Notes: generated from the letters alone by a model not told the origin. 64,000 nucleotides of DNA from an uncultured Methanosarcinales archaeon (GCA_964453185.1 CAYVNN010000002.1:274308-338307), one strand, 5' to 3'. Positions 3,441 to 48,190 are shown, numbered from the stretch's first letter. Made by a program: numbers and translations.

Positions 3441-3866
3441 TTATTGTTCTAATAGTTCTTTTAGCTTATTATCTTTAATACTATTTTTTAACTGAAATAT
3501 CTTATTGATCATTTCTTTTCCTTGTTCATAATCAACTTTCTTACCATAATAATTAATACTAATCCTTGCATACCTAAATCTATCAAAACTATGGTAATCA
3601 AAGGCAGGGACTAATTCTCTTAGTAATTCACCCATACAAACATGGTTTGTAACATTATATCCTAGTATAAGACATAATGCTTCAAGTGTTTCTCTTAGAG
3701 CATCATAAGCCATTGGAAGAAATGCATTAACATTATTTTTATCAATATTTGCTGATCTAACTGCTTCTTCTTTTATGTCTGCAATTTCAATTAATGAAAT
3801 AGCTTTTGATTTATTTGGTATTGTAATTTTAATAAAACCTTTACTTTTACATTCGTTTATGTCCAT
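3441..3866 (-). CDS. HEPN-like domain protein, putative toxin partner of the MNT
   Basis: A 141-aa protein directly downstream of a minimal nucleotidyltransferase, overlapping it by 10 nt. This is the classic MNT-HEPN operon arrangement. The Rx4-6H motif is not clearly conserved, so confidence is low to moderate. Confidence 0.4.
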   Translation of the reverse strand: MDINECKSKGFIKITIPNKSKAISLIEIADIKEEAVRSANIDKNNVNAFLPMAYDALRETLEALCLILGYNVTNHVCMGELLRELVPAFDYHSFDRFRYARISINYYGKKVDYEQGKEMINKIFQLKNSIKDNKLKELLEQ

Positions 3867-4381
3867 TGTATTTGACCTTGTAATAATATTCCATTTAATA
3901 CATTATTGGTTAAATGTTTATTCTTTAAATCTTTTAATTCTTTCACAACAAATAATTGTAATGATTTATTAATTTTTTTTTCAAAATCTTTCTTTTCTGG
4001 GAAATCTTTTGTATTTTCGCTTATAATGACTAAATCAATATCACTTGTTTCAGTGTCGAGTCCATATGATGCAGAGCCAAATAGTATAATTGTTGGCTTT
4101 AGATAAAATATATTTAATGATTCAATTAATCCTGAATCTCTTATCTTTTTTATGCTATAGTATTTTTTAAGATCTTTATAATTATCAGATTCTAGATTTG
4201 CTTTGTATAAATCTAGTATTCTTTCTTTTCTATATTTTATTAAATCCTTTTTATTAAGTTCTTTTAATTTTTTACTTATTGTTGCAGGAGTCTTTTCAGT
4301 TATTCTAGCTACTTCTCTTACATTAAATTCTCTGTTTGGTTCTTCAAAGAATATTTTCATTATGTTTAATATTTTGAACAT
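3857..4381 (-). CDS. Minimal nucleotidyltransferase (MNT) with N-terminal wHTH
   Basis: The motif GSASYGLDTETSDIDLVI matches the G[SG]x9-13Dx[DE] nucleotidyltransferase signature. The N-terminal region, REVARITEKTPATISKKLKEL, looks HTH-like. Confidence 0.65.
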   Translation of the reverse strand: MFKILNIMKIFFEEPNREFNVREVARITEKTPATISKKLKELNKKDLIKYRKERILDLYKANLESDNYKDLKKYYSIKKIRDSGLIESLNIFYLKPTIILFGSASYGLDTETSDIDLVIISENTKDFPEKKDFEKKINKSLQLFVVKELKDLKNKHLTNNVLNGILLQGQIQWT

Positions 4382-4571: not shown

Positions 4572-5315
4572 ATGACATTAAAATACAAAGGTGGTAATAT
4601 GGCAGATAGTCCAACATTAGATAGTATGGTTGGTGAACTTCAAGGTGGACCAGCAGGTGAAGCTCTTCAACAATATCATGATTTTATGAGTGAAGATAGA
4701 TTAAGAGCATTATCAAAAAATTGTTTTATTCCAGGTGCAGATGAATTTTATAAAACATTTGTAGCACAATTAAAAGAACAAAGTGTTGATGATGAAAAGC
4801 ATACTGTTAAAGATAAAGAAGCAGAAGTAAAAACCGCTTTAACACATGCATTAAAGTCATATTTTGGAAAGGTTAGTCCAGCTTTTCTTGAACATTTAGA
4901 AAATATTGATGAATCTGAACATTATGATGCTCTTGTTAAACACTTTGAAGATACCCATTTTGATAGAGATACTAGGAGAGGGATAAATCTGGATGCATTA
5001 ATCCTTAAACAAAATCAAAAGGCTAAGGTTGGCGAAGTAATAGAATATATGGGTAAGATGAAAGGTGATTTTGGTAAGTATGGTATGGATCATTTAAGTC
5101 AAAAAGTACACTCAAAATTTCTTGGTGCTTATAGATCACAAGATATTGCTGCAGCTTTACATGAGAAAGCTGAGGGCCAAGGTATGACATTAGAAGATCC
5201 AAGTCAATTATATACTAAAGATACAAATGATTTAATGGGTTTATCAACTTATCTTCATACAGGTAAAGGACGAATGGATCATGAACATTATGGATTAGCA
5301 CAACCTGGAAAATAA
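4572..5315 (+). CDS. Hypothetical protein with GC-richer, K-poor composition
   Basis: A long ORF (247 aa) with no recognisable motif. Its composition differs from neighbouring housekeeping genes. The true start may be at M10 (MADSPTLD). Confidence 0.4.
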   Translation: MTLKYKGGNMADSPTLDSMVGELQGGPAGEALQQYHDFMSEDRLRALSKNCFIPGADEFYKTFVAQLKEQSVDDEKHTVKDKEAEVKTALTHALKSYFGKVSPAFLEHLENIDESEHYDALVKHFEDTHFDRDTRRGINLDALILKQNQKAKVGEVIEYMGKMKGDFGKYGMDHLSQKVHSKFLGAYRSQDIAAALHEKAEGQGMTLEDPSQLYTKDTNDLMGLSTYLHTGKGRMDHEHYGLAQPGK

Positions 5316-7842: not shown

Positions 7843-8697
7843 TTATTTTAATCTCTTTCTTTTCATAGATTCAATTTCATCATTATAATTATCAGAACTA
7901 ACTACTTTTTCGTTTGTTTCTATTTCTAATTGTTTTCTAGCAATACCTGCAACAGCCCCACCTCTTTTTGCTGTATCTTTATTTTCATTGAAACCTTGTG
8001 CATTCTTCTTTTTTGCAATCTTTGTAGTTGAAGCTTCTCCCAACATGGTAAATATTAATTCTAAATCATTCATATGATCTCTTAAATTTTCTCTTTTCAA
8101 TCCTTTATGTTTCTTGTATTCAGCAGGTGTTAAACCGAATGTTGCTTTGCTGATTTCTGCTGTTAATATTGAATATTCTTTCCCTTTTTTAACTCCTCTT
8201 TTATCCCATTCATCAGTTAATTCATCTCTTACTGCTATTCCTCTAACTCTTTTCTCAATCCAATCATCAGAATAACCTTTTGCTTTGTATAATTCTCTCA
8301 TTCGTTTTTGAGTAAGTTCAGGTTTTTCAATTTCTTGTACTCTTTCATAACCTACTTTAGCTAACCATTTTTTGAAAGGTTCTGCTTTTGGAGAAGGAAT
8401 TGATTGGATTATTCTAAAAATGCCTTCAGTATTAGCACAGTCAGTAACTCGCATTTTACCATCATCTGCGAGTAATTTCAACTGGTGACAAAATGTCACC
8501 ACTTCACTTCCTTCTTCTCTAAGTCTTTGACTAAGCTTATTCCAATATTTCCTTGATCTTTGATATTCTTGCTGATCTACTAAAATAGCAACAACATCAA
8601 TTACAGAAAAATACCATTCTTCATTATACCATTGTCTCCGAATCTTTTTGTCTTGAAATACAATTAGTGATTTATCTGATTCTTTAATGACTAACAC
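7843..8697 (-). CDS. Bro-N domain / DNA-damage-inducible protein D (DinD)-like protein, paralog 1
   Basis: An N-terminal Bro-N-like segment (IRRQWYNEEWYFSVIDVVAIL) is present. The C-terminal HKGLKRENLRDHMNDLEL...KKKNAQGF region resembles E. coli DinD (RKGLKKNQKILDHMGSTEL...). About 60% identical to the ORF at 40841..41680. Confidence 0.65.
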   Translation of the reverse strand: MLVIKESDKSLIVFQDKKIRRQWYNEEWYFSVIDVVAILVDQQEYQRSRKYWNKLSQRLREEGSEVVTFCHQLKLLADDGKMRVTDCANTEGIFRIIQSIPSPKAEPFKKWLAKVGYERVQEIEKPELTQKRMRELYKAKGYSDDWIEKRVRGIAVRDELTDEWDKRGVKKGKEYSILTAEISKATFGLTPAEYKKHKGLKRENLRDHMNDLELIFTMLGEASTTKIAKKKNAQGFNENKDTAKRGGAVAGIARKQLEIETNEKVVSSDNYNDEIESMKRKRLK

Positions 8698-10835: not shown

Positions 10836-12215
10836 TTAATGTGGTATTATACCTAATCTTTTCTGTTCTTTTACTGTTAATCTTACTGCCCTATTCGGAC
10901 CTATATGTTCTTCAAGAAATTCATTATATTCTTTTAAATGTAGGGATTTTCCAGCAATATCTCTTGCTTGTTGTTGTGTTTCATGATCACCAAATTCTTC
11001 AGCCATATCACCAAATGCATAAACTTGAACAGCTAAACGGTGGATACCAGGCAATATGGTATCTTCTCCTCCTTCATATCTTCTATTTAGATCTTGCAAA
11101 GCAATTTCTACACGTTCTAAATAAGAGTCAATATTCTTTAAATGTTGATTTAAGTACTCTCCTTTTGCAACATATTCATCTCTTATTTCTTCACCTGTTT
11201 CCCATCTTCTTAATCTAATCTCTCTTCCATGCATTGGAATTTCTCTTGAATATAATCTTTCATTATAAATATACCACTCACTAACAATATATGTTCCTGA
11301 TTTATGTAAGAATTGTACTTGTGCTCCATCTGGAATTTTTTTATTTTCCCATCTTGGTTCAATTCCAGTCTGTTCTATAAACCTTGCTCTTCTTTCTTCT
11401 GTATCTGTATACCTTCTTTTTTCTTCATCTGTTGCTTCATATTCACTTACTGGTCCATCATAGTTTCCATCTCTAAATCTAAGGAGAAGATATGTGTCCA
11501 TGCCTGCAAATACACAACTTGTTAATTTTGTTAAACCAAGCATTCTATTATCTGTTCTTAAACTAAATGGAGAATTAGCAATAAACTTTTTTCTAAAACC
11601 TGTTTTAACAACAGGATCTAGTGTCCATTGTCGTCTACAAACTTCTTCTACACTAAGTTTTCTTTTTAGTGTAAATTGATTTCTATCAATTTCTGCTTCA
11701 TACAATTCATTATCTTTTAAAACATACAATGGAATTCCTAGTGGTTGTATTCCAGTTAAGATCTTAGGTAAAACATCTTTTCCTTCATCTCCAACATTAT
11801 CTGTTACATAAAATCCCATTATTGTTGGATCATCTATTACAATTTCATTATATCCACCAGTTTCATTAGCTATTGCTTTTTTTACTCTTTCTTCTAATGT
11901 TCCAATACGCATAAATGGTGTTGTTCTTTCTCTTAATGATACAGGTTTTGTTGATCCATCACCTTGAAATGCTTCAGTTATTGTTCCTCTATTAACAACC
12001 ACACCCATAGTAGACCATAAAGCACGTTTAGAACCGCCAAGAACATGAGAACATGCTGCTAATGTAGGATCAAATGCCAAGGCAATCTCTAACTTTGATC
12101 TCCAATCAACTGCTCTGTGTAAATTAGTAATAGTACTAACATCTGTCCCATTCACAATCCCATGTAAGAATATTGCATTATATCTCTGCATAACTTCTTC
12201 TACATCCATAATCAT
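10836..12215 (-). CDS. Hypothetical protein (459 aa) with atypical composition
   Basis: A long ORF with no recognisable motif. It is transcribed divergently from the MTAP-like gene. It has GC-richer codons and is K/N/I-poor relative to its neighbours. Confidence 0.4.
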   Translation of the reverse strand: MIMDVEEVMQRYNAIFLHGIVNGTDVSTITNLHRAVDWRSKLEIALAFDPTLAACSHVLGGSKRALWSTMGVVVNRGTITEAFQGDGSTKPVSLRERTTPFMRIGTLEERVKKAIANETGGYNEIVIDDPTIMGFYVTDNVGDEGKDVLPKILTGIQPLGIPLYVLKDNELYEAEIDRNQFTLKRKLSVEEVCRRQWTLDPVVKTGFRKKFIANSPFSLRTDNRMLGLTKLTSCVFAGMDTYLLLRFRDGNYDGPVSEYEATDEEKRRYTDTEERRARFIEQTGIEPRWENKKIPDGAQVQFLHKSGTYIVSEWYIYNERLYSREIPMHGREIRLRRWETGEEIRDEYVAKGEYLNQHLKNIDSYLERVEIALQDLNRRYEGGEDTILPGIHRLAVQVYAFGDMAEEFGDHETQQQARDIAGKSLHLKEYNEFLEEHIGPNRAVRLTVKEQKRLGIIPH

Positions 12216-12321
12216 AAGGTAATCTAATGTTATTTTTAAATGTTGATAGTATAGTATAATTATATTTTTATATTAAACAATCATTACATTTTCTATTAAT
12301 CTTAAGAAAGGAGGGGATATT

Positions 12322-13254
12322 ATGCTTGATGGATGTAGGGTTGCAGTTATTGGTGGTTCTGGTGTACATGATAGTCCAGGATTTAAAGATTTAAAATGGA
12401 GAAAAATTGATACTAGATATAGAAAGGGAGGAGATGTTTCATTAACAGATAGAGTAGTTGCTAGAATGGGTGGATTAAGAAGAGGTGTTGTTGAATATCA
12501 ATTAAGAGATGATGGTGTTATTTTTATTCCTAGACACGGACATGAAAGAAGGTATGGTCCTTGTGTTACACAATATGGAGCTAATTTAATTGCAGCAAGT
12601 ATGTTGGGAGCTAATGTTGTTGTTGCAACAAGTGCAGTTGGTTCTCTTGATGAAAATATTCCTGTTAAATCACTTATTATTCCAGATGATTATGATGATC
12701 AGACAAATAGGAATGATAATTTATATGGAGAAGGCATTGTTTTACATAGTGATTCAAAACAGGCATTTTCAGAACCATTACGGAGAGTATTGTTAGATGA
12801 ATTGGCTTATTATAGTGATAGATTTGTTCATGTTCATGAGACTGGTACTTATGTTTGTATTCCAGGCGATAGATTTGGAACAAGAGCAGAAGGCCAGAGA
12901 AGAAGATTAGAAGGTGCAAATGTAGTTGGTATGACTGCATGTCCTGAAGCTTCTATGGCTGTTCAACTTGGACTGCATTATGCTATTCTTGCTTTTGCAG
13001 TTGATAATGATTTGGATGCTAATCATGAGCAAGGTACACTAGCAATAATGAGAGAATTATCTAAATCAGATAAAGTTCCTTATGTTGTTGGAAGAATTGT
13101 TGAACAAGCAAAGTCTTTTGCACAAGATGCTCCTCCTTTGCCTCAATTGGTTGGTAATATTATCCCTGGAGATACAACTAGGATTAGACATACATATCTA
13201 AGACAAGTTGCCAGAGAACAAATTGCTAGATATTGCAAAAAGGAAGCAGCATAA
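12322..13254 (+). CDS. Purine nucleoside / 5'-methylthioadenosine phosphorylase family (PNP family 2)
   Basis: Segments align to human MTAP: VAVIGGSGV, IPRHGHERRYGPCVTQYGANLIAASMLGANVVVATSAVGSLDE and GTRAEGQRRRLEGANVVGMTACPEASMAVQLGLHYAILAFAVDND. It has an N-terminal extension and a C-terminal tail. Confidence 0.7.
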   Translation: MLDGCRVAVIGGSGVHDSPGFKDLKWRKIDTRYRKGGDVSLTDRVVARMGGLRRGVVEYQLRDDGVIFIPRHGHERRYGPCVTQYGANLIAASMLGANVVVATSAVGSLDENIPVKSLIIPDDYDDQTNRNDNLYGEGIVLHSDSKQAFSEPLRRVLLDELAYYSDRFVHVHETGTYVCIPGDRFGTRAEGQRRRLEGANVVGMTACPEASMAVQLGLHYAILAFAVDNDLDANHEQGTLAIMRELSKSDKVPYVVGRIVEQAKSFAQDAPPLPQLVGNIIPGDTTRIRHTYLRQVAREQIARYCKKEAA

Positions 13255-15237: not shown

Positions 15238-17214
15238 TCACATTATTATTCTTTTAATAAACAATTTAACTTTATCCCAAAATGATAAATTAACTAATTC
15301 AACAACAAATGTTTGTTGTTCATTATAACTGTTTCCATATTCATCACTAAATTCAATAGATATCACAATTAAATTCTCTTGTTTAACAAAGTCATTACTA
15401 TTCATATTAATGGACACTGGTTCATCTTGAAATAATTCAACATATGTTATCATATGATTATTATTTCCAATCTCAATATTAACTTCAGCATTTAATGGAT
15501 TAGCTGTTGATTGTTTTAGTAATGTAAAATTAATTGTCATATTTTCTCCCAATCCAACTTCAGTTAATGCATTAATATCACTTATTTTGACACTTGGTTT
15601 ATCTATAACAACAAATTCAATTTCATCAGACTTTGAAATATCATCATTCTTTGCACTGATAAATATTTCATTTGTTCCAACAATAACTTCTTTCAAACCA
15701 AATTCAACAATATCTTCCTGTGCAATAGATAAACTTAATTCTTTACACTCGTCTTCATAACAAATTCCAATATTTTCCTGCATAGTATTGCCAACATTAC
15801 TTATGCTACATATTATTCCTGGTGTTTCTTCAATATAAAACAATTCACTTTCTATTCCACAATCTAAATAAACATCATCTGAATACACTTTTTCACTTTC
15901 TTCTGTTTTTTGTTCTTTGATTTCATTAATTTCCTCTAATGAATAATATCTATAATCTTTTCTTGATTGAAATACTACATCTTCTGATTCATTTGTTAAT
16001 GTGTATGCTCTGATATCAAAATAATATTCATATTGTTGTAGTAAACTGTCGTCGACAATCACTGTCCAGAACAATTTACCTTCTTCATTTGGTAATAATA
16101 ATACTTCTTGACTATAATCTTCTAAATAACTTAATCCTTCTGATCTTGAAACAAAGACAGTTAATGGAATATAATAATTAGCATTATTTTGAACAGTAAC
16201 CTCTAATAAATTATATGAACCAAAGCTTGTTGTTGTTTTAATTATTTCTGCATCTAATGTGTAAGGTGCTGTAAGTTCTTCACCTTTACTTATAACTCTT
16301 GCACTAATTTCTAAATCATGCACTAGTAAATTAACATTATTACCACTCCATTCATAATTAACACTTGTTTTGTCAGAATCTGCAGTATCTTTTAATTTAA
16401 TATGCGTTGCATCAATAAAACCTAATTGATTATATGTAACATCAAATGGTATCCATCCATATTCAGGAAAATAAACTTCAGCCCATCCATGTGCACCCCA
16501 ATTTTCAGTAAATAATTCAGATGTTGTGTATGAAACACCTGTAACAAATCTTGAAGGAACACCTATGCTTCTTAACATTGCAATAAACAAATTAGTCATC
16601 TCATCACAAACACCATATTTATTTTCAATAACCCAGCTTGCAGGTTGAGATGCTTCAGCTGTTACAGTGTTTAAATCATATTCAATATTATTATTAACCC
16701 ACTTAGCAATATCAAACACAACAACATAAAGATCATCTTCACCTGCAGCAATACTATTTGCTGTGTTTCTTATACTTGAATCACTATAATCAATTAAATC
16801 AGTTTCTTGTAAGTATGTAGAAACATTACTTGGTAAATCTAGTAATGGAAACTTTATTTTTTCATTAACCTCAACATATGCAGATTTTGTTTCAATATTA
16901 GAATCAAGTTCAAATTCTAATTTTGTTTCAATCGGGTTTTCCCATTCAAACTCAATTAGTCCTCCCACTTTTGTTGCAAAAGGTTCAGTATCAATGTTTG
17001 TAGGTATTTGTCTATAATCCTCTGCAGGATAAAACTCTAAGTTAGCTTTCACATAATTTAATTGATATCCAGTTGTTTTTGGTTCAATATCAATATAAGA
17101 ATCAATGTTTAGATGTAATGTTAATTCTTCATATGTATATAGTTCATCAGTTTCAGCAATAGCTAATGGAATAATTAATAGACATAATAGTAATATAATT
17201 GTTTTTTTAAACAT
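15238..17214 (-). CDS. Secreted transglutaminase-like (cysteine protease fold) large protein
   Basis: Signal peptide MFKKTIILLLCLLIIPLAIA. The transglutaminase core shows GVCDEMTNLFIAMLRSIGVPSRFVTGVSY then GAHGWAEVYF, placing the Cys and His residues in the expected spacing. Confidence 0.65.
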   Translation of the reverse strand: MFKKTIILLLCLLIIPLAIAETDELYTYEELTLHLNIDSYIDIEPKTTGYQLNYVKANLEFYPAEDYRQIPTNIDTEPFATKVGGLIEFEWENPIETKLEFELDSNIETKSAYVEVNEKIKFPLLDLPSNVSTYLQETDLIDYSDSSIRNTANSIAAGEDDLYVVVFDIAKWVNNNIEYDLNTVTAEASQPASWVIENKYGVCDEMTNLFIAMLRSIGVPSRFVTGVSYTTSELFTENWGAHGWAEVYFPEYGWIPFDVTYNQLGFIDATHIKLKDTADSDKTSVNYEWSGNNVNLLVHDLEISARVISKGEELTAPYTLDAEIIKTTTSFGSYNLLEVTVQNNANYYIPLTVFVSRSEGLSYLEDYSQEVLLLPNEEGKLFWTVIVDDSLLQQYEYYFDIRAYTLTNESEDVVFQSRKDYRYYSLEEINEIKEQKTEESEKVYSDDVYLDCGIESELFYIEETPGIICSISNVGNTMQENIGICYEDECKELSLSIAQEDIVEFGLKEVIVGTNEIFISAKNDDISKSDEIEFVVIDKPSVKISDINALTEVGLGENMTINFTLLKQSTANPLNAEVNIEIGNNNHMITYVELFQDEPVSINMNSNDFVKQENLIVISIEFSDEYGNSYNEQQTFVVELVNLSFWDKVKLFIKRIIM

Positions 17215-17290
17215 TATATAGTATATTTAAATAATCTATATAAATGTTTTTTGGAGAAGTAGATAAGATCATAATAATTAAAAAAGGTAA

Positions 17291-17529
17291 AGTTCGTACG
17301 ACTTTGCTTGCAAATGTCGTACTAGCTGGATTTTGGTTCAGCTTTTAGCTTGCCTAAAAGATGAGGGGATAGGGACTTTCAATGTCCTAAAATGAATTAG
17401 CACATCTTTGAACCCTAGTAGGCACTAAGCCAATAGATTGCTCAGTCATAGCTCCAGATGGAGCTCATCACTCAATGCCGTTTGATAACGCTTGAGTCTA
17501 TCCCGTTTGGCCACTCCGGCATCCCCTCA
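17291..17529. ncRNA. GC-rich structured ncRNA candidate of about 240 nt (class unresolved; RNase P RNA, SRP RNA or other)
   Basis: A sharp GC-rich island inside an otherwise AT-rich 350-nt intergenic gap. GAGGGGAU (17363-17370) pairs with AUCCCCUC (17521-17528). Several perfect local hairpins are present: CGUACGAC..GUCGUAC, CUUUUAG..CUAAAAG and AGCUCCA..UGGAGCU. Conserved SRP helix-8 (GGAAGGGAGCA) or RNase P P4 motifs were not convincingly found by eye. Confidence 0.35.
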
Positions 17530-17564
17530 ATATAAAACAAAAGAAATAAGTTTTATTTATAAAT

Positions 17565-17936
17565 TTAACTCAAACTTCTTAGATCAGATTCAATTGAAGC
17601 AAGATCATCTTCTAGTCTGTCTAACTGTGACTCTGTGAACTTAGGTAGAATCTTTTCATCGGTTTTTTTCTCAACAACAGATTTTACTCTCTTACTTTTT
17701 ACAACAGGTAACAACACCTTTAATCTTTCATTTGCCTCATTTATTTCAGAAACAGTTTGTTTTAACATTTCCATTTTTTGTATCTTTTGTGTTTTGAATT
17801 TTTTATACTTTTCTTCAAAACTTCTTAAACTGTCGATTGTAACTTTAGAACTCTCTAATAGATCTTTTTTAATCTGTTTGGGTTGTTCAATATGTACAAA
17901 ATATAATTTATCATCATCCATTTTATATGTTCTCAC
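17565..17936 (-). CDS. Coiled-coil protein (hypothetical), third gene of a three-gene operon
   Basis: 123 aa, K/E-rich with heptad-like pattern. It overlaps the upstream 77-aa ORF by 14 nt. Confidence 0.35.
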   Translation of the reverse strand: MRTYKMDDDKLYFVHIEQPKQIKKDLLESSKVTIDSLRSFEEKYKKFKTQKIQKMEMLKQTVSEINEANERLKVLLPVVKSKRVKSVVEKKTDEKILPKFTESQLDRLEDDLASIESDLRSLS

Positions 17937-18156
17937 ACTCGACTAAAACACTATCAATAAAGTTGATTTTATCTTCAACTTGATTTAAACTATTTTCCCA
18001 CATTTCTATCTCAGCTTCTTCATCTCTTTTTATCTTTTTAATGTCTTCAATTGTTCCTTTTGCTACCTCTATTTTTGTTTTCATTGTATTCAATAAAGAT
18101 AAAATTTCTTGATATGATTCAAGTTTTACAAAAACTGGTTTTTTATTCTCCATCAT
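17923..18156 (-). CDS. Small coiled-coil protein (hypothetical)
   Basis: 77 aa, helical and E/K-rich. It lies between the two other co-oriented genes. Confidence 0.3.
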   Translation of the reverse strand: MMENKKPVFVKLESYQEILSLLNTMKTKIEVAKGTIEDIKKIKRDEEAEIEMWENSLNQVEDKINFIDSVLVECENI

Positions 18157-18272: not shown

Positions 18273-19037
18273 TTAATGCTTTGAGTATAATAACTTTTCT
18301 ACATCTTCTAATTGATCATTAAAATCTTCTAATGAGTTTTGCCATCTTTCAAATAACTTATCTTCTTCATCAGCTAAACTCTTTAATCTATATAATGTAT
18401 CATTTGATATGTTTGTTTCTTCACTTAATGAAGTGGAAACATTCATAAAATCAACAAAATCAGTGATTCTTATAAAATTAAAATTTTTACCTGGAATATG
18501 TTTAAGAACTGGTTGTTTGGGTTCTTCAATTTCTTCATTTAATTCTTGCATTGGTTCTTTTTCTAATTCTTCTTTTTCTTGCATTAATGCAGGGGGTTCA
18601 TCTAATTCTTTTTCTTGATCAGGTAATGGTGCAAACACTGGTTTCTTTTCCTCTACTGGTTTTTCAACCACTGGTTCTTTAATTGGTGCAGGTTTCATAT
18701 TTGAATTATCCATAAAATGATCTTCTTCGTGCGGTACTGGTTTTTCAGGTATAGTAGTTTCTACTTGAGTTTCACTTAAATCCATTGCAGTTCCTGCTAA
18801 GTTAGGTGGTAATGGAAACTCAGGTACTTCTTGACCTGACTTACTAAGTGCTCTTGGCAATTTTGGTGTTCCACCTTCTCTTCCTTTAGGTATGGATGGA
18901 GTATCATCAAAATCTAGAGAAGAATCATGACTAAGCCCTCCACCTTTCATAAGGCTAGGCTCTTCTAATGGCTGTGCTGTATTCCCAGAACTAGCTAGAT
19001 TTGGTTCACTCTTCTTTTTTTTACTAAAAAATCCCAC
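18273..19037 (-). CDS. Hypothetical protein with N-terminal amphipathic/basic segment, Pro/Glu-rich linker and C-terminal globular domain
   Basis: MGFFSKKKK at the N-terminus, then a roughly 150-aa P/E-rich low-complexity region, then a C-terminal domain NFNFIRITDFVDFMNV...LYRLKSLADEEDKLFERW. Confidence 0.35.
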   Translation of the reverse strand: MGFFSKKKKSEPNLASSGNTAQPLEEPSLMKGGGLSHDSSLDFDDTPSIPKGREGGTPKLPRALSKSGQEVPEFPLPPNLAGTAMDLSETQVETTIPEKPVPHEEDHFMDNSNMKPAPIKEPVVEKPVEEKKPVFAPLPDQEKELDEPPALMQEKEELEKEPMQELNEEIEEPKQPVLKHIPGKNFNFIRITDFVDFMNVSTSLSEETNISNDTLYRLKSLADEEDKLFERWQNSLEDFNDQLEDVEKLLYSKH

Positions 19038-40840: not shown

Positions 40841-41680
40841 TTATTTTAACTTCTTTTTATCTTTATTTTTTAAATAATTATCTTTAGATATAATTGATTC
40901 TCCTAAATTATTTTCTAAATCTTTTCTTGTTCTTTTTGCAATATTTCCACCTTTCTTAGCAGAATCTTTACATTCATCAAATCCTTGGGAATCTTTTTTC
41001 TTTGTTATGTCTGTAGTTGCTTTTTCTCCAATCATGTTTAAGATCAATTCCCAATCAGTCATGTGATCTCTTAAGTTTTGATTTGGTCTTTTTAGTCCTT
41101 TGTAATTCTTATATTCTCCTACTGTTTTTCCAAATGTAGCTTTACTAATTTCATTTGTTAATATTGCAAACTCTTTGCCTTCCTTAACATTTCTATTCTT
41201 CCATTCTTCTGTTAAATCTTGCCGTATTGCAATTCCTCTTAACCTTTTATCTATCCATTCCTTTGGATAACCTTTAAGTTCGTAATATTTTTTAATTCTA
41301 TCTTGTCCTAATTCAGGATTTTCTATTTCTTCAATTCTTTCATATCCAATCTGAGCTAACCATTGTTTAAATGGCTCTGCTTTCTTAGAAGGAATTGATT
41401 GAATAATTCTAAACATAGATTTAGTATTAGCACAGTCTGTAAGTCTCATTTTACCATCTTCTGCTTGTAGTTTCAACTGTACGATTATATCGTACACTTC
41501 AAATCCTTCTTCTTTTAATGTCCTTTTTAAATCAGACCAATACCTTTTTGGAATAGAACTTACTTCTAATGCTGTAACTACATCTACTACAGAAAAATAC
41601 CATTCATCATTATGCCATGTCCTTCTTATGTTTTTACCTTGAAAAACTACTAGTTTATTGACTTCCCCCATAAAAACCAC
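40841..41680 (-). CDS. Bro-N / DinD-like protein, paralog 2
   Basis: About 60% identical over its full length to the ORF at 7843..8697. The shared motifs are the same: NIRRTWHNDEWYFSVVDVV and YKGLKRPNQNLRDHMTDWELI. Confidence 0.65.
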   Translation of the reverse strand: MVFMGEVNKLVVFQGKNIRRTWHNDEWYFSVVDVVTALEVSSIPKRYWSDLKRTLKEEGFEVYDIIVQLKLQAEDGKMRLTDCANTKSMFRIIQSIPSKKAEPFKQWLAQIGYERIEEIENPELGQDRIKKYYELKGYPKEWIDKRLRGIAIRQDLTEEWKNRNVKEGKEFAILTNEISKATFGKTVGEYKNYKGLKRPNQNLRDHMTDWELILNMIGEKATTDITKKKDSQGFDECKDSAKKGGNIAKRTRKDLENNLGESIISKDNYLKNKDKKKLK

Positions 41681-47850: not shown

Positions 47851-48039
47851 ATTTTAAGGCTAAGATAATTAATAATCTTTCTCAGAATCAAAAATCGATC
47901 AATCACATCTTTCGAGTAAGGTTTTTACCGCCGTAAGACGAACCTATAGGATTCAACTCCGAAAACCTCTGCTTTCGAATGCGATTGACCAAGACTATTT
48001 CTGACAGAACTCATATTTAAATTTATTGAAAATAAAGAA

Positions 48040-48156
48040 TGCGCCGGCCGAGATTCGAATTTCCGGTTGCTTTAGGCAACGCTCGGATCAACGGCTCCCT
48101 TCTTAGCTATTAAGCCAAATGGAAGGCCGCTATACTAGCCATTGTACTACCGGCGC
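48040..48156 (-). tRNA. tRNA-Gly (anticodon UCC) with two putative introns (anticodon loop 37/38 and T-arm 53/54)
   Basis: The minus-strand transcript is GCGCCGG UA GUAC AAUGGCUA GUAU A GCGGC CUUCCA[23-nt intron]A GCCGU UGAU CCGAG[22-nt intron with GUUGC-CUAAA-GCAAC hairpin] UUCGAAU CUCGG CCGGCGC A. It has a perfect acceptor stem, the consensus T-loop UUCGAAU and the archaeal tRNA-Gly 5' end GCGCCGGUAG. No CCA is encoded. Confidence 0.6.
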
Positions 48157-48190
48157 ATACAACCGTAAGAAATGTGATTTATTTATAAAT

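Follow-up and report, generated by a model that had tools for sequence, protein, structure and literature searches.

What is encoded by a short GC-rich island that lies between protein-coding genes in an AT-rich archaeal genome? The island in question spans positions 17291-17529 of a stretch of 64,000 nt deposited under the name of an uncultured Methanosarcinales archaeon (GCA_964453185.1 CAYVNN010000002.1:274308-338307); this whole stretch is called the window below, and positions are counted from its first letter. An initial annotation had described the island as one structured non-coding RNA (ncRNA) of about 240 nt, possibly RNase P RNA or the RNA of the signal recognition particle (SRP). 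We conclude that these 239 nt combine two separate things, a gene at 17362-17528 and, at 17291-17361, an element of another kind. The gene, on the minus strand, is very probably a transfer RNA gene, tRNA-Leu(CAA), of a Woesearchaeota-like DPANN archaeon, interrupted by two introns of the bulge-helix-bulge (BHB) type. In kind this core result is ordinary and already explained, as it is an archaeal tRNA with two BHB introns.

The GC-rich island and its gap

The compositional signal is real. GC content is 29.9% in the whole window and 45.2% in the island, with a local peak of 58% over 50 nt, and the island is the GC maximum among all 239-nt windows of the 64 kb. An equal rank is reached at only one other place (47927-48166), which is occupied by another hidden tRNA gene. 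The island is GC-rich because a tRNA body of 52% GC sits within a genome of 30% GC. It lies in an intergenic gap of 350 bp (17215-17564), as initially described, flanked by open reading frames (ORFs) at 15238-17214 and 17565-17936, both on the minus strand; the sole ORF that touches this gap, a TTG-started frame of 48 aa on the plus strand (17492-17638), was judged trivial. The same 350-bp sequence is 100% identical across four separate metagenome assemblies, and it is therefore not an assembly artefact. Three small ORFs of the coiled-coil type adjoin the island (17565-17936, 17923-18156 and 18273-19037, all minus), in agreement with the neighbourhood reported before. An exact-sequence look-up of the 123-aa neighbour protein gave no match.

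The impression of extensive secondary structure is likewise borne out. A 251-nt stretch folds with a z-score of -4.3 on the plus strand and -4.4 on the minus strand, values equalled by 0 of 200 shuffles. Several perfect or near-perfect hairpins are present, for example GTACGAC/GTCGTAC (17296-17322), AGCTGGAT/GTTCAGCT (17324-17343) and GCTCC(A)/(T)GGAGC (17451-17464). The closing helix that had been noted also exists, as a perfect 9-nt inverted repeat of 17362-17370 with 17521-17529, but it is the acceptor stem of a tRNA.

A tRNA-Leu(CAA) gene in three exons

Read on the minus strand, the locus begins with GAGGGGAUGCCGGAGUGGCCAAACGGGAUAGACUCAAG, in which an acceptor strand is followed by a class II D arm and by an anticodon stem-loop with CAA as its anticodon. 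The 3' strand of the anticodon stem (A-UCUAU) comes 52 nt on and is followed by a long variable arm and UAGGG-UUCAAA, and the T-stem and acceptor strands (U-CCCUA-UCCCCUC-A) come 31 nt further on. Removal of both inserts in silico leaves 84 nt, which ARAGORN identifies as tRNA-Leu(caa) with a canonical class II cloverleaf. The spliced product has a 7-bp acceptor stem, GG in the D loop, an anticodon stem of 5 bp with a 7-nt loop bearing U33 and G37, a long variable arm, a T stem of 5 bp with the 7-nt loop UUCAAAU, and A73. The nucleotides that established tRNA knowledge singles out as conserved (U8, G18G19, U33, a purine at 37, G53-C61, UUCRANN and A73) are all present (GAGGGGAUGCCGGAGUGGCC...CUCAAGA...GGGUUCAAAUCCC...CUCA), and the model of a cloverleaf with two BHB motifs contains standard pairs only.

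The predicted gene (17362-17528, minus) corresponds to a pre-tRNA body of 167 nt, 84 nt when mature, in which CCA is not encoded. Exon 1 (17491-17528) holds the 5' acceptor strand, the D arm, the 5' strand of the anticodon stem and the loop up to G37, with the anticodon CAA at 17494-17492. Exon 2 (17407-17438) runs from A38 through the 3' anticodon strand, the long variable arm and the 5' T-stem strand to A59 of the T loop, and exon 3 (17362-17375) carries U60, the 3' strands of the T stem and the acceptor stem, and the discriminator A73. Intron 1 (52 nt, 17439-17490) is located at position 37/38 and intron 2 (31 nt, 17376-17406) at the non-canonical position 59/60 within the T loop. The 3' end of a probable TATA box, TTTATAAATA (17554-17563, minus), lies 25 nt ahead of G1, and the box shares sequence with the stop codon region of the ORF upstream. 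Directly after the discriminator comes the run UCUUUU (17361-17356), a likely archaeal oligo-T termination site, a role assigned from general knowledge of archaeal termination.

Both introns have the strict form of the splice motif. The applied scan demanded a 4-bp helix (H) with a 3-nt bulge on either side and, beyond these, helices (h and h') of 2 bp or more, and every spliced variant was scanned again by ARAGORN. This blind enumeration of hBHBh' motifs returned a single solution at the locus, consisting of the same two introns. In intron 1 (17490-17439), H is CUCA/UGAG, the bulges are AG|C and CA|A, and h' is GUUAU/AUGAC; in intron 2 (17406-17376), H is UUCA/UGAA, the bulges are AA|G and AG|U, h is the T stem and h' is AUGU/ACAU. 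H is 4/4 in both, with 6 and 5 bp in h and 5 and 4 bp in h', respectively. The first two anticodon bases lie within H of the 37/38 intron, agreeing with the published description (PMC4090602). Multiple and non-canonical tRNA introns are known from Archaea, position 59/60 included (PMC4090602); undetected disrupted tRNA genes are expected in DPANN, and EndA variants with an L3 loop have been reported in diverse lineages of this group (PMC5829648).

Expression of the gene would start from its own TATA box and the transcript would end at the UCUUUU run. The 167-nt precursor would offer both introns, in the anticodon loop and in the T loop, as canonical bulge-helix-bulge motifs; the archaeal splicing endonuclease would make four cuts within the 3-nt bulges, and an RNA ligase would join the three exons to the 84-nt tRNA. 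Trimming of the ends would be followed by addition of CCA, which is expected after splicing because it is not encoded. The substrate anatomy (cloverleaf, two strict BHB motifs and their conservation) is what our analysis provides, and the processing steps are modelled on the established archaeal pathway.

Why standard searches miss the gene

ARAGORN found neither a tRNA nor a transfer-messenger RNA (tmRNA) in the raw window, with or without its option for anticodon-loop introns. After removal of intron 2 alone it mis-called Val(cac) with a shifted intron, and after removal of intron 1 alone it made no call. Rfam 15 gave no match at the gathering score in the whole window, and a permissive search of both strands of 17150-17650 (E<=10) gave chance-level hits of the small nucleolar RNA type only. 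The gene escapes both ARAGORN and Rfam because the T-loop intron breaks the cloverleaf. An intronless ortholog from Woesearchaeota (L030; loci from our scans are given L numbers) served as control, and it scored 54 bits with the Rfam tRNA model RF00005 and was called tRNA-Leu(caa) by ARAGORN, while the intron-bearing orthologs L101, L132, L133 and L059 were missed by both; this explains the negative results on the window locus. The absence of an Rfam hit had been named as grounds for dismissing the island, a rule that would wrongly discard a real gene, as Rfam misses every intron-containing ortholog tested.

Orthologs in DPANN genomes

A scan of species-representative genomes with an exon-1 pattern gave at least 120 loci, nearly all of them from DPANN, of which 117 were usable. 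Among these, 71 are intronless tRNA-Leu(CAA) genes and 44 have a 37/38 intron (46 by the automatic rule, the long cases L031 and L080 being artefacts). Removal of the 37/38 intron yielded a clean tRNA-Leu(caa) at 105 of the 117 loci, and the spliced length of 84 nt is the modal one (83 of 109 orthologs). The spliced product from the window is 90.5% identical to L030, gap-free, and 95.2% identical to the two-intron ortholog L101.

Six species have the 59/60 intron (the window, L101, L132, L133, L036 and L077), with a perfect H in every one. Within this helix, position 57 pairs with the intron as A-U in four of them and as G-C in the other two, a compensatory exchange, and h' varies in sequence (five different sequences) with pairing always kept. 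L133, obtained from a metagenome scan, has exons identical to those of the window and the same two intron positions, with quite different intron sequences, and the motif TTTATAAATAAA lies upstream of it at nearly the same distance. Adjacency of the tRNA gene to a 77-aa coiled-coil gene is kept in L101, L132 and L133. In a 69%-identical relative (L007/L008) the tRNA is absent from the corresponding position, hence no comparison could be made there. The expected conservation in relatives was found for the tRNA exons and the splice helices of the introns; the left-hand 70 nt of the island, in contrast, are essentially unconserved.

L133 (Ga0209211_10003723, about 3560-3990) is the closest relative found, and it has its tRNA gene inverted with respect to the coiled-coil operon. 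An extra partial copy of the tRNA 3' part, UGCCUACUAGGGUUCGAA-[42-nt insert]-UCCCUAUCCCCUCA, lies about 120 nt downstream and could be an attachment-site-like (att-like) remnant of integration or recombination, or an alternative 3' half. Another observation concerns L075, where the tRNA-Leu(CAA) at about 5005-5120 has a T-loop insertion of about 41 nt, GGTTCGAAT|ACAAAC...AAAAG|TCCTG. Strict and relaxed BHB searches of this insertion gave no spliceable tRNA; L075 may have a relaxed or unusual splice motif, or may be a damaged gene.

Alternative identities of the locus

A single structured ncRNA that spans all of the roughly 240 nt and belongs to a class other than tRNA (for example RNase P RNA, SRP RNA or tmRNA in a divergent or minimal form, or a new housekeeping RNA) would fit the strong folding on both strands (z about -4.3) and the position of the GC island in a gene gap. 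We regard it as extremely unlikely: no covariance model for RNase P, SRP or any other Rfam family matched at the gathering score or, chance-level snoRNA-type hits aside, at E<=10 on either strand of 17150-17650, ARAGORN found no tmRNA, the left-hand 70 nt are unconserved beside the orthologs, and the tRNA exons with their BHB introns account for every feature of 17362-17528, with a spliced form 90-95% identical to orthologs. The initial annotation was right to expect a structured housekeeping ncRNA gene in the island, and wrong about its class, which is tRNA instead of RNase P or SRP RNA, and about its extent, which is 167 nt with a separate flank of 70 nt on the left.

A dead tRNA-Leu pseudogene with two insertions and a functional copy elsewhere would be in keeping with the rejection of the locus by standard tRNA finders. 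Two points also weigh against our reading as an active gene. The survey for copies was confined to the 64-kb window, and the conformer with cloverleaf and BHB motifs lies 9.5 kcal/mol above the minimum free energy (MFE) structure (-52.8 vs -62.3 kcal/mol, nearest-neighbour model). The latter is weak evidence, as the mature sequence likewise does not adopt the cloverleaf as its MFE structure. A pseudogene is very improbable in view of the insertions themselves, since both sit in perfect hBHBh' motifs, which random insertion would not create. L101, L132 and L133 have introns at both of these positions, and there the intron sequences have diverged and the splice helices are kept by compensatory changes; the exons are identical to those of L133 and free of defects, the promoter motif is conserved, and a tRNA-Gly(UCC) gene in the window shares the two-intron style. 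No att-site duplicate of the tRNA 3' end was found in the window.

A kink-turn and an antisense element in intron 1

Intron 1 holds more than its splice motif. A UUGAG element (17471-17475, minus) is complementary to C32-A36, its G being opposite C34, and is followed by a conserved and covarying module (17446-17468, minus) with the parts of a kink-turn: a D'-like AUGA (17468-17465), a C-stem hairpin GCUCC-AUCU-GGAGC (17464-17451), and the bulge UAU with GA (17450-17446). In the order 4-15 variable nt, UUGAG, 2 nt, NNGA, hairpin, 3-nt bulge ending in U, and GA, then 1-14 nt (69 in L096) and the BHB strand UGAG, this composite motif is present in 19 of the 40 distinct introns at 37/38, compared with 0.09 expected from shuffles. 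Seven further introns match with one imperfection or stem from metagenome loci, which brings the family to at least 26 DPANN members.

The family spans metagenome-assembled genomes (MAGs) of Woese-, Pace- and Nanoarchaeota and is not in Rfam. Besides the window it comprises L015, L032, L036, L040, L043, L048, L050, L059, L060, L062, L066, L068, L074, L077, L086, L088, L094, L096, L101, L104, L105, L120, L123, L132 and L133. The longer members have an extra spacer of 9-14 nt, often ...CAUUUG, between the kink-turn and the BHB strand.

A trimmed alignment of 22 of the 26 family introns shows no variation in U1, U2 and G3 of UUGAG, in the 5' GA, in the closing G-C pair or in the 3' UGA; conservation of A4 and G5 of UUGAG is at least 90%. 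The hairpin stem is paired in 89.8% of cells compared with 63.8% in shuffles, and its covariation score is 0.70 vs 0.22 when shuffled (0/500), with far lower values in slid controls. The predicted anatomy, with GA 5' of the canonical stem and a 3-nt bulge plus GA on its 3' side, is that of a C'/D'-type kink-turn. A kink-turn module for protein binding in intron 1 thus appears well supported by the alignment, and its most likely binder is predicted to be L7Ae.

Does intron 1 guide methylation of its own tRNA?

Of the 26 listed members, 25 have a spacer of exactly 2 nt between UUGAG and NNGA, and in L088 the antisense element carries an insertion. Counted upstream from the NNGA box, the fifth nucleotide is therefore the G that faces C34, and in box C/D RNAs the methylated position is the one opposite the fifth nucleotide upstream of the D or D' box. 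Based on this geometry, we tentatively propose that intron 1 could guide 2'-O-methylation of the wobble position (Cm34) of its own tRNA by fibrillarin/Nop5 before splicing. The array UUGAG-NN-NNGA-hairpin-NNUGA would bring L7Ae, Nop5 and fibrillarin together on the still unspliced pre-tRNA-Leu(CAA), C34 would first receive its 2'-O-methyl group, and a conformational switch to the BHB fold would then permit splicing; alternatively, the target would be a second molecule, after excision or circularisation of the intron. The broader idea, that the intron family of at least 26 DPANN genomes may represent a new class of methylation guide, borne by introns and built on a single kink-turn, is put forward with slightly more reserve still.

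Several points weigh against a guide. There is only one kink-turn, and the guide duplex has only 6-7 bp (A31-A36/G37), below the typical guide length, with the C34 spacing rule holding in 25 of 26 members; in vitro, C/D complexes with a single motif ("hemi" complexes) are weakly active and imprecise (PMC1635284). Also, in the short intron of the window the h' strand AUGAC of the BHB motif is the same AUGAC that belongs to the kink-turn, so the two folds are mutually exclusive there and a conformational switch would be needed. Slightly less than even chances are left, in our view, for a kink-turn that is not a guide, and either binds L7Ae or another kink-turn protein and helps the intron to fold and to present its BHB motif, or is a relic of an inserted hairpin flanked by duplicated UGAG. 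Apart from the short duplex and the poor hemi complexes, such an interpretation is favoured by the lack of a conserved terminal pair of boxes C and D, by the variation of alignment positions 8-9 (so that GUGAUGA of the window is not conserved as a box C), and by the resemblance of UUGAG and the 3' UGAG to a direct repeat. It does not readily explain the near-invariance of UUGAG beside freely varying leader, loop and spacer sequences, nor the 2-nt distance to NNGA, kept in 25 of 26 members, that places C34 at N+5. A31, a possible pairing partner of the U after UUGAG, is found in 23 of 24 family members vs 41% of other loci, a comparison not controlled for phylogeny, and in Pyrococcus C34 of tRNA-Leu(CAA) has been predicted as a C/D target (PMC7668247).

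Whichever of these applies, intron 1 is not to be filed as a box C/D small RNA (sRNA); it "works like half of one". The bipartite architecture of C/D plus C'/D' is absent, as only one kink-turn is conserved in the family, neither GUGAUGA nor CUGA of the window is conserved as a box in the alignment, and a regular-expression scan of the window found no canonical C/D sRNA. A classical bipartite C/D sRNA in intron 1, suggested by a weak sR5 hit (E=0.48) and the GUGAUGA...CUGA pair, was rejected for its unconserved boxes and the missing second kink-turn. Genes of the C/D machinery were not found in the partial Pfam annotation of the window, and a literature search for fibrillarin or Nop5 in DPANN returned nothing specific.

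The hairpin cluster 3' of the tRNA gene

The left-hand part of the island (about 17291-17361, strand unassigned) is not tRNA but a 3'-flanking cluster of three hairpins that overlap in part (17296-17322, 17324-17343 and 17342-17360), and T-runs are present on both strands. It has no second copy in the window and no homolog downstream of the syntenic tRNAs in L101 and L132. A search beside the syntenic tRNAs and in all 130 fetched loci gave one marginal match only, the hairpin CUUUUAG-GCAAG-CUAAAAG, 18/21 in L133 with two compensatory changes; on this comparison, the flank appears essentially unconserved. Our best guess, held with low confidence, is that it acts as a terminator or insulator and separates the tRNA gene from the promoter of the transglutaminase-like gene.

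It is unlikely, but not negligibly so, that 17291-17361 encodes instead an independent sRNA on the plus strand, with a Y-shaped fold of about 70 nt (a 9-bp closing stem and two hairpins) and divergent transcription from the AT-rich promoter region 17215-17285. The plus strand folds better than the minus strand (-25.4 kcal/mol, z -3.7, vs -19.0 kcal/mol, z -3.3), four G-U pairs would turn into A-C mismatches on the minus strand, and a hairpin followed by UUUU on the plus strand makes the one terminator-like site of our scan. Such an RNA would, however, lack any Rfam match and any homolog near the syntenic tRNA of L101 and L132, with only the short marginal match in L133 and a single copy in the window, and the T-run at 17342-17345 (plus) would end the transcript before the closing stem forms. 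TATA-like strings carry no weight here because they are ubiquitous in sequence of 16-18% GC. Two further candidates were set aside: an H/ACA RNA, as the left hairpins show by eye neither an ACA box nor a pseudouridylation pocket, and a repeat or mobile element, as 17291-17361 is single-copy in the window.

A second hidden tRNA gene and the genomic context

The window contains a second hidden tRNA gene, tRNA-Gly(UCC), at 48040-48156 (minus), which also has two strict BHB introns and is also missed by ARAGORN and Rfam. Its introns are of 23 nt at 37/38 (UUUGGCUUAAUAGCUAAGAAGGG) and of 22 nt at 53/54 in the T arm (48081-48060).

As to the host, the best named relatives of the neighbouring PIN-ATPase are in Woesearchaeota and Nanoarchaeota, and the window contains an archaeal ribosomal protein/SecY operon. 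Five of the loci from our scan (L029, L048, L066, L070 and L090) are labelled "uncultured Methanosarcinales" yet bear a DPANN-type tRNA-Leu(CAA) exon 1, and L048 and L066 additionally carry the kink-turn intron; such labels may reflect mis-binning or mislabelling of MAGs.

Between the genes for the PIN-ATPase and seryl-tRNA synthetase, the region 10836-13254 encodes a 459-aa protein without Pfam match and a 310-aa PNP_UDP_1 phosphorylase. These genes are absent from the same position in the 69%-identical L007/L008 and therefore represent a lineage-specific insertion; with a GC content of 30-36%, the region is no compositional island. Proteins with a BRO-N domain, which is typical of viruses and mobile elements, are encoded at 7843-8697 and 40841-41680 (both minus), the former gene adjoining an Orc1/Cdc6-like AAA gene.

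Implications and comparison with known systems

Within 64 kb of a DPANN genome, two tRNA genes escape both ARAGORN and the Rfam tRNA model, yet they form the two strongest GC islands of the window. In DPANN genomes, GC islands can thus point to tRNA genes overlooked by standard tools. Hidden genes of this type affect estimates of MAG completeness and claims of "missing tRNAs" for DPANN, and they can be recovered by a simple step in which BHB motifs are enumerated, spliced out and the product scanned again. The conserved module of kink-turn and anticodon antisense element offers a concrete reason for the retention of the intron across Woese-, Pace- and Nanoarchaeota. If intron 1 does guide Cm34, it would be the second known intron-encoded tRNA modification guide after that of pre-tRNA-Trp, and would add breadth to what is now the single textbook example of a tRNA modified by way of its own intron. 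Being a natural "hemi" or minimal C/D ribonucleoprotein (RNP), a form that from in vitro work is expected to barely function, it would also put the supposed need for a bipartite architecture to the test.

The gene resembles the multi-intron tRNAs of other Archaea, such as those of Thermoproteales (for example Pyrobaculum tRNA-Pro(UGG) with three introns) and Nanoarchaeota (PMC4090602), in its hBHBh' presentation with cuts in 3-nt bulges and in the combination of a canonical 37/38 intron with a non-canonical one; position 59/60 is on the published list of insertion sites, and those genes, too, are missed by standard finders. It differs in its host, a mesophile-like DPANN archaeon of the Woesearchaeota type with 30% GC instead of a crenarchaeon, in that both BHB motifs are strict, not relaxed, and in that the 37/38 intron bears an extra conserved module of the RNP type.

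For this module, the closest parallel is the intron of pre-tRNA-Trp(CCA) from Haloferax volcanii and other Euryarchaeota, in which a box C/D guide for Cm34 and Um39 is nested, a guide described as unique and "always intronic" (PMC4090602, PMC2584109). Common to both are the 37/38 site, a sequence antisense to the own anticodon loop beside a kink-turn of the box D'/C' type, a C34 opposite the fifth nucleotide upstream of the box, and, in the short form present in the window, competition between guide and BHB folds. Unlike the tRNA-Trp intron, however, that of tRNA-Leu(CAA) has one kink-turn and not a full set of C/D plus C'/D', one candidate guide in place of two and a duplex of only 6-7 bp; it is also shorter, at 39-66 nt in the family (one of 111 nt) compared with about 65-105 nt.

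The same nucleotide of the same tRNA species is the predicted target of a trans-acting C/D sRNA of Pyrococcus furiosus (a snoRNAdb prediction, PMC7668247), which is a stand-alone bipartite sRNA, whereas the candidate guide described here lies inside the tRNA's own intron. In eukaryotes, C34 of tRNA-Leu(CAA) is modified by Trm4 in an intron-dependent manner (PMC4090602). The parallel extends to tRNA species, nucleotide and requirement for an intron-containing precursor, but Trm4 is a protein-only enzyme that reads the structure of the precursor, with no kink-turn or guide RNP and with a different chemistry.

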